DNA from: Escherichia coli
GTDB taxonomy: Bacteria > Pseudomonadota > Gammaproteobacteria > Enterobacterales > Enterobacteriaceae
Assembly: GCF_051903065.1 (NCBI RefSeq)
Contig: NZ_CP178438.1
Strand: one strand, 5' to 3'
DNA length: 64,000 nt
Shown here: in pieces, positions 54,668 through 58,821 of the stretch
How the letters are laid out: each line of letters opens with the position of its first letter
How positions within the stretch are numbered: the stretch's first letter is position 1
The notes under the pieces: generated by a model
What the model saw: only the letters and a program-made list of their open reading frames with translations
What the model was told of the DNA's origin: nothing
The model's database searches: none
Translations under genes and position numbers: made by a program

Positions 54668-55693
54668 ATGAAAAAGATGATGATAGCCACACTGGCTGCC
54701 GCCAGCGTGCTGCTTGCCGTTGCAAATCAGGCGCATGCTGGCGCGACGCTTGATGCCGTTCAGAAAAAAGGTTTTGTGCAATGCGGGATCAGTGATGGAT
54801 TACCTGGGTTCTCTTATGCCGATGCTGACGGTAAATTTTCAGGTATTGATGTTGATATTTGTCGTGGTGTTGCCGCTGCTGTATTTGGTGACGACACGAA
54901 AGTGAAATATACCCCGCTCACTGCAAAAGAACGCTTCACCGCTTTACAGTCAGGGGAGGTGGATTTGCTCTCCCGTAATACGACCTGGACTTCATCTCGC
55001 GACGCCGGGATGGGAATGGCATTTACTGGCGTCACTTATTACGACGGCATTGGCTTCCTGACGCACGATAAAGCGGGGCTAAAAAGCGCGAAAGAACTGG
55101 ATGGCGCTACCGTCTGTATTCAGGCGGGTACTGATACCGAACTCAACGTTGCCGACTATTTCAAGGCAAACAATATGAAGTACACACCGGTGACTTTCGA
55201 TCGCTCTGACGAATCAGCGAAGGCACTGGAATCTGGTCGCTGCGATACGCTGGCCTCGGATCAGTCGCAACTGTATGCCCTGCGCATCAAATTAAGCAAC
55301 CCGGCTGAATGGATTGTCTTACCGGAGGTTATCTCTAAAGAACCGCTTGGGCCGGTAGTTCGTCGTGGCGATGATGAATGGTTCTCGATTGTACGCTGGA
55401 CGCTTTTCGCCATGCTAAATGCTGAAGAGATGGGCATCAATTCCCAGAACGTCGATGAAAAAGCGGCTAATCCAGCAACGCCTGATATGGCACATCTGCT
55501 GGGTAAAGAAGGCGATTACGGCAAGGATCTGAAGTTGGATAATAAATGGGCCTATAACATCATCAAACAGGTGGGTAACTACTCGGAAATTTTTGAGCGT
55601 AACGTAGGTTCAGAAAGCCCGCTGAAAATTAAACGTGGGCAAAATAATCTCTGGAATAACGGCGGTATTCAGTACGCACCGCCCGTGCGTTAA
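54668..55693 (+). CDS. yhdW: Periplasmic substrate-binding protein of a polar amino acid ABC transporter
   Basis: 341-aa ORF with a signal peptide (MKKMMIATLAAASVLLAVANQAHA); first gene of a four-gene transporter string. Confidence 0.9.
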   Translation: MKKMMIATLAAASVLLAVANQAHAGATLDAVQKKGFVQCGISDGLPGFSYADADGKFSGIDVDICRGVAAAVFGDDTKVKYTPLTAKERFTALQSGEVDLLSRNTTWTSSRDAGMGMAFTGVTYYDGIGFLTHDKAGLKSAKELDGATVCIQAGTDTELNVADYFKANNMKYTPVTFDRSDESAKALESGRCDTLASDQSQLYALRIKLSNPAEWIVLPEVISKEPLGPVVRRGDDEWFSIVRWTLFAMLNAEEMGINSQNVDEKAANPATPDMAHLLGKEGDYGKDLKLDNKWAYNIIKQVGNYSEIFERNVGSESPLKIKRGQNNLWNNGGIQYAPPVR

Positions 55694-55760
55694 GTCGGTG
55701 TGAGGTAACGAGCGTCGCTACGGCGGCGCTCTCTTCAGCGTTATGCTTTCCGAGGTTTCT

Positions 55761-56942
55761 ATGTCTCATCGCCGCTCAACCGTTAAAGGCTCACTCTCCT
55801 TTGCCAACCCTACGGTTCGTGCCTGGTTATTCCAGATCCTTGCCGTTGTTGCTGTTGTCGGCATTGTTGGTTGGTTATTTCACAACACTGTAACGAATCT
55901 CAATAATCGTGGCATTACTTCAGGTTTTGCCTTTCTGGATCGCGGCGCTGGCTTCGGTATTGTCCAGCATTTGATCGATTACCAGCAGGGCGACACCTAC
56001 GGACGCGTTTTTATTGTCGGCTTACTCAATACGCTACTGGTTTCTGCATTGTGTATTGTGTTCGCTTCTGTTTTGGGCTTCTTTATCGGTCTGGCGAGAC
56101 TTTCGGATAACTGGCTGCTACGAAAGCTTTCCACAATTTATATTGAGATCTTCCGTAATATTCCCCCGCTGCTGCAAATCTTCTTCTGGTACTTTGCCGT
56201 GTTGCGCAATTTGCCCGGACCACGCCAGGCTGTGAGCGCGTTTGATCTGGCCTTTTTGAGCAATCGTGGGCTTTATATTCCGTCACCGCAGCTGGGAGAC
56301 GGATTTATTGCGTTTATCCTGGCTGTTGTTATGGCTATAGTCCTTTCTGTTGGGCTATTCCGCTTTAATAAAACATACCAGATAAAGACCGGACAACTGC
56401 GCCGCACCTGGCCGATCGCTGCAGTGTTGATCATTGGTTTGCCTTTACTGGCGCAATGGCTTTTTGGCGCAGCACTACACTGGGATGTCCCAGCCCTACA
56501 AGGCTTTAACTTCCGCGGCGGGATGGTTTTAATTCCTGAACTGGCAGCCTTAACGCTGGCACTTTCGGTTTATACCTCTGCATTTATCGCCGAGATTATC
56601 CGCGCGGGGATCCAGGCAGTGCCTTATGGTCAACATGAAGCGGCTCGGTCACTGGGATTACCCAACCCGGTTACGCTACGCCAGGTCATTATTCCCCAGG
56701 CACTGCGGGTGATTATTCCACCGTTAACCAGCCAGTATCTCAACATCGTCAAAAACTCCTCTCTTGCCGCCGCTATTGGCTATCCCGATATGGTTTCGCT
56801 GTTTGCTGGCACCGTGCTGAACCAGACGGGGCAAGCCATCGAGACGATAGCCATGACCATGTCGGTCTATCTGATTATCAGCCTGACTATCTCGCTGCTG
56901 ATGAATATCTATAACCGCCGCATCGCGATCGTGGAACGCTAA
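55761..56942 (+). CDS. yhdX: Amino acid ABC transporter permease
   Basis: Track ORF 55743..56942 trimmed to MSHRRSTVKGSLSFANP (393 aa); polytopic membrane protein. Confidence 0.85.
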   Translation: MSHRRSTVKGSLSFANPTVRAWLFQILAVVAVVGIVGWLFHNTVTNLNNRGITSGFAFLDRGAGFGIVQHLIDYQQGDTYGRVFIVGLLNTLLVSALCIVFASVLGFFIGLARLSDNWLLRKLSTIYIEIFRNIPPLLQIFFWYFAVLRNLPGPRQAVSAFDLAFLSNRGLYIPSPQLGDGFIAFILAVVMAIVLSVGLFRFNKTYQIKTGQLRRTWPIAAVLIIGLPLLAQWLFGAALHWDVPALQGFNFRGGMVLIPELAALTLALSVYTSAFIAEIIRAGIQAVPYGQHEAARSLGLPNPVTLRQVIIPQALRVIIPPLTSQYLNIVKNSSLAAAIGYPDMVSLFAGTVLNQTGQAIETIAMTMSVYLIISLTISLLMNIYNRRIAIVER

Positions 56943-56951
56943 GGAGTCATG

Positions 56952-58055
56952 ATGACAAAAGTATTGCTGTCTCATCCCTCGCGCCCGGCGAGCCATAACT
57001 CAAGCCGCGCGATGGTGTGGGTGCGAAAAAATCTGTTCTCCAGCTGGAGCAATAGCCTGCTGACTATTGGCTGCATATGGTTGATGTGGGAACTGATCCC
57101 ACCGTTGCTGAACTGGGCATTTTTGCAGGCTAACTGGGTTGGCTCAACGCGTGCCGACTGCACAAAAGCCGGTGCCTGTTGGGTCTTCATCCACGAACGA
57201 TTTGGTCAGTTTATGTATGGACTTTACCCACACGACCAACGCTGGCGAATTAACCTGGCATTACTGATTGGCCTTGTGTCAATCGCACCAATGTTCTGGA
57301 AAATACTCCCGCATCGCGGTCGCTATATTGCGCTCTGGGCAGTGATTTACCCACTGATTGTCTGGTGGCTGATGTATGGCGGTTTTTTTGCTCTTGAGCG
57401 GGTTGAAACCCGGCAATGGGGCGGGCTGACGCTAACTTTAATTATTGCATCAGTTGGGATTGCGGGGGCGCTACCGTGGGGGATCTTACTGGCGTTAGGT
57501 CGCCGCTCCCATATGCCGATTGTGCGTATCTTATCGGTCATTTTTATCGAGTTCTGGCGCGGCGTACCGCTGATTACCGTATTGTTTATGTCTTCGGTCA
57601 TGCTGCCTTTGTTTATGGCAGAAGGCACCAGTATCGACAAACTGATCCGCGCGCTGGTTGGCGTGATCCTGTTTCAGTCAGCATATGTTGCGGAAGTCGT
57701 GCGAGGTGGATTACAGGCGCTGTCTAAAGGGCAATATGAAGCGGCAGAGTCGCTGGCGTTGGGTTACTGGAAAACTCAGGGGCTGGTTATTCTGCCACAG
57801 GCGTTGAAGCTGGTAATTCCTGGGCTGGTAAATACCATCATCGCACTCTTCAAAGATACCAGCCTGGTGATCATTATCGGGTTGTTCGATCTTTTCAGTA
57901 GCGTTCAGCAGGCAACCGTTGATCCCGCCTGGTTGGGTATGTCGACGGAAGGGTATGTTTTCGCCGCGCTGATCTACTGGATCTTCTGTTTCAGCATGTC
58001 ACGTTATAGCCAACATCTGGAAAAACGTTTTAACACCGGGCGTACACCGCATTGA
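56952..58055 (+). CDS. yhdY: Amino acid ABC transporter permease
   Basis: Track ORF 56949..58055 trimmed to [16 protein letters not shown] (367 aa). Confidence 0.85.
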
Positions 58056-58062
58056 GGACACT

Positions 58063-58821
58063 ATGAGCCAAATTTTACTGCAACCTGCTAACGCGATGAT
58101 TACGCTGGAAAACGTCAATAAATGGTATGGACAATTCCATGTTTTGAAAAATATAAATTTAACCGTGCAACCGGGAGAACGGATCGTTCTGTGTGGCCCT
58201 TCAGGTTCCGGTAAATCGACAACCATTCGTTGTATTAATCATCTGGAAGAACATCAACAGGGACGGATCGTGGTAGATGGCATCGAACTTAATGAAGATA
58301 TCCGCAATATTGAGCGCGTCAGGCAGGAAGTGGGAATGGTCTTTCAGCATTTCAATCTCTTCCCTCATCTGACCGTTCTACAGAACTGTACCCTGGCACC
58401 GATTTGGGTACGCAAGATGCCAAAGAAAGAGGCTGAAGCTCTGGCGATGCATTACCTTGAGCGGGTGAGAATTGCCGAACATGCGCATAAGTTTCCCGGA
58501 CAGATTTCAGGTGGTCAGCAGCAACGCGTTGCCATTGCGCGCTCGCTGTGTATGAAGCCGAAAATTATGTTGTTTGATGAGCCCACATCGGCGCTCGATC
58601 CGGAGATGGTGAAAGAGGTGCTGGATACGATGATTGGGCTGGCGCAATCGGGTATGACAATGTTGTGTGTAACCCATGAGATGGGGTTTGCGCGAACCGT
58701 CGCTGACCGGGTGATTTTTATGGATCGTGGCGAAATAGTGGAGCAAGCTGCACCGGATGAGTTTTTTGCGCATCCTAAGTCAGAGCGTACGAGGGCATTT
58801 TTATCGCAGGTAATCCATTAA
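58063..58821 (+). CDS. yhdZ: Amino acid ABC transporter ATP-binding protein
   Basis: 252-aa ORF with Walker A (GPSGSGKST), signature (SGGQQQR) and Walker B ([10 protein letters not shown]) motifs. Confidence 0.93.

Follow-up and report, generated by a model that had tools for sequence, protein, structure and literature searches.

An intact yhdWXYZ polar amino acid transporter operon in Escherichia coli and the one-base deletion in its K-12 counterpart

The yhdW, yhdX, yhdY and yhdZ genes of Escherichia coli encode a predicted ATP-binding cassette (ABC) transporter for amino acids, whose periplasmic binding-protein gene, yhdW, is broken in the laboratory strain K-12. We analysed a 64,000-nt stretch of an E. 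coli genome (RefSeq assembly GCF_051903065.1, contig NZ_CP178438.1), termed the window in what follows, in which these four genes occupy positions 54668-58821. With a probability of about 0.93, the operon in the window is the ordinary wild-type E. coli yhdWXYZ, in the undamaged state that most complete genomes of the species share, and K-12 has lost YhdW through the deletion of one base. Neither the intact operon nor the lesion is new: both are already known, and the K-12 deletion at yhdW nucleotide 68 has been described (Borde et al. 2026, bioRxiv 10.64898/2026.05.04.722672).

The yhdWXYZ operon

The yhdW start codon (ATG) and the yhdZ stop codon mark the exact limits of the region. An open reading frame (ORF) listing gives four intact, co-oriented genes on the plus strand, with no internal stop in any of the four. 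The first, yhdW (54668-55693), encodes a periplasmic substrate-binding protein of 341 aa. It is followed by two permease genes, yhdX (55761-56942; 393 aa from the RefSeq start) and yhdY (56952-58055; 367 aa from the RefSeq start), and by yhdZ (58063-58821), which encodes the ABC ATPase of 252 aa. The proteins annotated in identical DNA are, in the same order, WP_000738568.1, WP_000019652.1, WP_047624527.1 and WP_000078338.1. Intergenic gaps of 67, 9 and 7 nt fit a single operon. The start codons used for the two permeases are predictions; the longest ORFs begin at 55743 for yhdX (399 aa) and at 56949 for yhdY (368 aa), respectively 18 and 3 nt 5′ of the ATG annotated at RefSeq.

This is a real annotated operon and not a chance set of ORFs. 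Searched with a 4.5-kb query spanning the four genes, all but one of 5,426 complete E. coli genomes (5,425) contain the locus; identities range from 95 to 100%, with 100% over the query in E. coli ECNB21-M121. The matched genomes annotate it throughout as substrate-binding protein, yhdX, yhdY and yhdZ. Its chromosomal position is also kept, with synteny to yhdV and to an rrnD-type rRNA operon preserved, marking it as a core-genome locus.

Four genomes (NZ_AP027159.1, NZ_AP042551.1, NZ_CP169026.1 and NZ_CP137696.1) include some where an insertion of IS1203, of the IS3 family, splits yhdX, and one without the yhdW-yhdX half of the locus. Breakage of the operon has thus also arisen independently in a few lineages other than K-12. 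A plasmid record is reported to carry one copy of the locus.

The protein sequences carry the features of each component. YhdW matches SBP_bac_3 in Pfam (E=2.4e-16) and scores 198 bits against the NCBIfam subfamily model TIGR01096, under its 256-bit cut-off. A signal peptide is predicted at codons 1-24 (54668-54739), where MKK leads into a hydrophobic core and cleavage is predicted between AHA and G; residues 1-19 are the only hydrophobic segment of the protein. Both permeases match BPD_transp_1 (PF00528; E=2.3e-16 for YhdX and 6.7e-24 for YhdY) and exceed the cut-off of TIGR01726 (HEQRo_perm_3TM), and both have the EAA loop, or coupling loop, at residue 293 in YhdX and residue 263 in YhdY. 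YhdZ matches ABC_tran (PF00005; E=9.9e-40), with Walker A at residue 45, Q-loop at 93, ISGGQ signature at 148, Walker B at 168 and H-loop at 204; in NCBIfam it comes nearest to GlnQ, EhuA and TcyN, all under their equivalog cut-offs. NCBIfam places all four proteins among polar amino acid ABC systems, and none of them reaches an equivalog cut-off. A preliminary description of this region, made from the sequence, had claimed that all four components are intact and that the binding protein has 341 aa with a signal peptide; the full-length ORFs, the expected domains and motifs, and the hydrophobic segment with its AHA site bear out both statements. These sequence features identify yhdWXYZ as a type I ABC importer that depends on a binding protein and belongs to the polar amino acid (PAAT) family, with uptake as the predicted direction.

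The permeases point to a more specific placement within that family. The YhdY core aligns with the solved ArtQ permease (PDB 4YMS) only over residues 157-363, and its match to other PAAT models is limited to about the same residues, which implies a long N-terminal extension. The matches of YhdX to PAAT permease models fall into two stretches, so that both permeases extend beyond the PAAT core of about 220 aa. Among diverged homologues, the top matches to YhdY measure about 350-380 aa or more. Extra permease length is typical of the Aap/Bzt group (AapM/BztC). We assign yhdWXYZ to the 'general L-amino acid' kind of transporter represented by AapJQMP and BztABCD, its substrate range being predicted.

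The yhdW deletion in K-12

The preliminary description had taken yhdW to be annotated as a pseudogene in K-12 MG1655 and had suggested aligning the two copies to look for a frameshift or stop. This was correct, and the alignment locates the damage. At NC_000913.3, yhdW (b3268) is annotated as a pseudogene and measures 1,025 nt; the window gene has 1,026 nt, so that the two differ in length as well as in frame. Alignment of the K-12 gene (positions 9043-10067 of our K-12 locus sequence, L001) with window positions 54668-55693 gives one gap and 13 substitutions. The gap is a single base deleted in K-12 at yhdW nucleotide 68, corresponding to window position 54735 (plus strand), the A of codon 23 (CAT). 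The frameshifted K-12 product is 78 aa long. Past the deletion, translation of the K-12 gene in the +1 frame (frame 3 of the alignment output) gives the same mature protein as in the window. Since the lesion falls within the signal-peptide cleavage region, K-12 would have no exported binding protein.

All 13 substitutions are synonymous, which suggests that yhdW is under purifying selection outside K-12. The lack of non-synonymous changes in the pseudogene itself also suggests a recent loss in K-12.

Allele distribution and direction of change

The K-12 allele, represented by a 60-mer across the deletion, occurs exactly in 355 of the 5,426 complete genomes. Among the matches listed (60), all are K-12 laboratory derivatives; carriers include MG1655, C600, J53, DH5alpha, DH1, NCM3722 and RR1. 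The intact allele of the window, represented by a 61-mer, occurs exactly in 3,711 genomes. We also compared six diverse strains, namely O157:H7, BL21(DE3), an avian pathogenic E. coli (APEC) O78 strain, W4, the urine isolate U12A and FDAARGOS_1304. In each of these YhdW is intact at 341 aa with at most two aa differences from the window, and the same holds for a seventh strain, K-12, when its missing base is restored. Beyond E. coli, YhdW aligns with its closest solved relative, Brucella BztA (PDB 4Z9N), over residues 22-341 with E=5.3e-122, the next PDB match being at 2e-20.

From the allele counts and the six intact strains, intact yhdW is evidently the species norm and K-12 the derived exception. 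The opposite history, in which the K-12 frameshift is ancestral and the intact form in the window a secondary repair, is effectively refuted. It would have to accommodate an intact form spread over phylogenetically diverse strains and thousands of exact matches, a frameshift allele confined to K-12 derivatives among the matches listed, a Brucella homologue that aligns in the intact frame, and the complete systems reported in Citrobacter (10.64898/2026.05.04.722672); we found no evidence in support of repair. The E. coli population data together with the 4Z9N alignment settle the polarity of the change, as a loss in K-12. The window copy had been called 'the functional ancestral form'. Ancestral agrees with the genome counts, the six strains and the Brucella homologue, whereas functional is something that we infer from intactness and conservation.

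Substitutions in the permeases and ATPase

YhdX, YhdY and YhdZ have equal lengths in K-12 and the window, with 1, 4 and 2 aa differences, respectively. The sole difference in YhdX is Q247, which is R in K-12. Two YhdY residues stand out from the other strains compared as private to this lineage: L128 (codon 57333-57335), where those strains have Ala or Val, and S258 (codon 57723-57725), which is Pro in all seven, K-12 and the six above. Residue 258 lies five residues ahead of the EAA motif. Just 3 of the 5,426 genomes carry the S258 allele exactly (ECNB21-M121, 23CRST027 and 23CRST031).

Such rare changes raise the possibility that the ORFs are intact and the transporter is nonetheless non-functional in this lineage, disabled by YhdY P258S or L128 or by expression altered through a nearby IS1 element. 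We consider this unlikely. Pro does prevail at position 258 beyond the species: the 150 best matches from a YhdY search of 1.84 billion representative proteins include 149 that align at this position, with Pro in 123, Gly in 8, Ala in 6, Ser in 5 and other residues in 7. Yet the five Ser homologues share the local motif (e.g. QAI[S]KGQYEAA), 14 more have Gly or Ala, and ArtQ (4YMS) has Asp at the corresponding position. Since these residues occur naturally there, P258S is probably tolerated, and a hidden inactivating effect of the substitution is unlikely.

Promoter region and upstream IS1 element

A sigma-54 promoter element of the -24/-12 type, TGGCAC-N5-TTGCT (TGGCACTACTTTTGCT), is found on the plus strand at 54572-54587, 81-96 nt upstream of the yhdW ATG. 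It is the sole match to TGGCACNNNNNTTGCW within the window, where 0.08 would be expected by chance, and it is identical in K-12. The yhdV-yhdW intergenic region that contains it is 430 bp long and differs from K-12 by 11 substitutions. A sigma-70 promoter scan gave 5 matches against 6.4 in shuffled sequence, hence no excess, and an inverted-repeat scan of the intergenic region gave two weak pairs only, with nothing interpretable. In K-12, the yhdV-yhdX interval contains both an NtrC peak from chromatin immunoprecipitation sequencing (ChIP-seq; PMC4066584) and an RpoN peak from genomic systematic evolution of ligands by exponential enrichment (gSELEX; PMC8743547), and K-12 yhdW was treated earlier as a frameshifted, NtrC-regulated gene (10.1101/770727).

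Farther upstream, an insertion sequence, IS1 (53170-53937, plus strand), is transcribed toward yhdV-yhdW and lies between flanks 52495-53169 and 53938-54237. It replaces about 5.99 kb of K-12 (L001 2326-8311). The segment lost relative to K-12 comprises the last 213 nt of yhdJ together with yhdU, envR/acrS, acrE and acrF, and so includes the acrEF multidrug efflux genes. The same IS1 structure is present in 23CRST027 (human faeces, Ecuador), where yhdJ is a truncated pseudogene at RefSeq. As a single piece, the left junction between yhdJ and IS1 was found among other complete genomes only in 23CRST027 and 23CRST031; counts of the IS1-junction 60-mers at '80% covered' (36 and 39) are inflated, as nearby separate pieces were joined, and the single-piece matches are the reliable ones. 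ECNB21-M121 has the same right junction yet retains yhdJ and yhdU, which indicates nested, successive adjacent deletions mediated by IS1.

With IS1 only 730 bp upstream and transcribed in the same direction, the element could in principle affect expression of the operon, as a non-functional transporter in this lineage might require. But yhdV (54016-54237) stands between IS1 and the operon, and the sigma-54 promoter is kept along with the whole intergenic region. With yhdV and this region intervening, the operon and its promoter are untouched by the rearrangement. The preliminary description had placed the operon 'immediately downstream' of the IS1-associated rearrangement; it is indeed downstream, although 'immediately' is loose.

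Downstream rRNA operon

A hairpin with a perfect 11-bp GC-rich stem, found by a terminator scan at 58845-58870 on both strands, begins 24 nt after the yhdZ stop. It is likely a bidirectional terminator between yhdZ and a convergent rRNA operon. The latter, of rrnD type and on the minus strand, fills the rest of the window (rRNA region 59052-64000). It consists, in window order, of a 5S gene (59052-59167), a tRNA gene (59210-59282; tRNA-Thr in the annotation of matching genomes), a second 5S gene (59297-59412), the 23S gene (59507-62409), an Rfam StyR-44 match directly upstream of the 23S gene (62417-62525), two spacer tRNA genes (62596-62668 and 62714-62787; Ala and Ile in the matching genomes' annotation) and the 16S gene, which extends from 62856 past the window end. 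This convergent arrangement downstream of yhdZ is normal, as in K-12.

Transport mechanism and role

As a working transporter, the system would operate as follows. YhdW would be exported by means of its Sec signal peptide and would capture a polar amino acid, most likely asparagine, in the periplasm. It would dock on the heterodimeric YhdX/YhdY permease and hand over the amino acid. Two copies of YhdZ would engage the EAA loops of the permease, and ATP hydrolysis would drive import. Transcription would start at the sigma-54 promoter upstream of yhdW, activated by NtrC at nitrogen limitation and reportedly also by ZraR.

Several points weigh against reading the window operon as this ordinary system. 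The NtrC consensus TGCACC-N5-GGTGCA, allowing up to three mismatches, is matched 32 times across the window against 35.5 expected, which is chance frequency. Its one match upstream of the promoter, at 54494-54510, has three mismatches and belongs to this chance-level class, so that the sequence does not by itself establish enhancer sites; the support for NtrC binding comes from the K-12 ChIP-seq peak. In laboratory conditions, the Citrobacter rodentium system did not act as a primary asparagine importer (10.64898/2026.05.04.722672). The YhdY of the window has the rare P258S adjoining its EAA loop. Finally, the substrate, the import direction, the regulation and the role in the host are drawn from literature or inference and not from this strain.

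The main role might instead lie in drug or antibiotic homeostasis, by way of efflux or of lower accumulation, a role proposed for YhdXYZ in K-12. Deletion of yhdWXYZ in K-12 leads to more lomefloxacin accumulation and to greater susceptibility to mecillinam and lomefloxacin (10.64898/2026.05.04.722672), and in the window the genes for a neighbouring efflux pump, AcrEF, are deleted. However, C. rodentium, with a complete system and intact YhdW, shows no antibiotic phenotype (10.64898/2026.05.04.722672), and the system is built as a type I importer, complete with its binding protein. We regard a primary drug role as very unlikely. Slimmer still is the prospect that YhdY P258S, L128 and the IS1 element, with its loss of acrS-acrEF and its transcription toward yhdV-yhdW, jointly alter Yhd expression or cargo; if they did, AcrEF loss could be linked to the antibiotic-homeostasis role reported for YhdXYZ.

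Taken as an ordinary wild-type yhdWXYZ, the operon of the window has slight importance beyond correct annotation, namely that K-12 is atypical at the yhdW locus. Because the K-12 transporter is without its binding protein, results obtained with K-12 yhdXYZ, for example on antibiotic susceptibility, may not transfer to natural isolates, as has already been argued (Borde et al. 2026, 10.64898/2026.05.04.722672).

Comparison with known systems

The nearest known system is that of K-12 MG1655, yhdW(pseudo)-yhdX-yhdY-yhdZ (b3268-b3271). It occupies the same locus with the same synteny, yhdV upstream and the rrnD-type operon downstream, and has 98.5% nucleotide identity to the window across 53937-60000. 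It differs in the missing nucleotide 68 of yhdW, which leaves the 78-aa product and no binding protein, and in retaining yhdJ, yhdU, envR, acrE and acrF where the window has IS1.

Conservation of the Yhd system extends across E. coli and Citrobacter; in Shigella it is degraded, and Salmonella and E. albertii lack it (10.64898/2026.05.04.722672). The YhdWXYZ of C. rodentium likewise has four components, an intact binding protein and type I importer architecture. Its YhdW binds asparagine with a Kd of 0.37 µM, other amino acids tested having little or no effect; in structure it comes closest to Brucella BztA (4Z9N), and a Yhd mutant has a colonisation defect in the mouse (10.64898/2026.05.04.722672). 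This is another genus, however, and both the asparagine binding and the mouse colonisation phenotype belong to the C. rodentium protein, not to that of E. coli. In uropathogenic E. coli (UPEC), deletion of Yhd lowers fitness in urine and kidney (PMC11032443).

The window operon shares its four-gene order, binding protein, permease, permease and ATPase, with the BztABCD and AapJQMP systems. These are general or polar L-amino acid ABC transporters of alphaproteobacteria, Bzt from Rhodobacter capsulatus and Aap from Rhizobium leguminosarum. Demonstrated specificity is broad for Aap and covers Glu, Gln, Asp and Asn for Bzt. The likeness extends to the proteins: essentially all of mature YhdW aligns with BztA (4Z9N), and both permeases of the window are unusually long, at 393 and 367 aa, their PAAT core of ∼200 aa lying at the C-terminal end.

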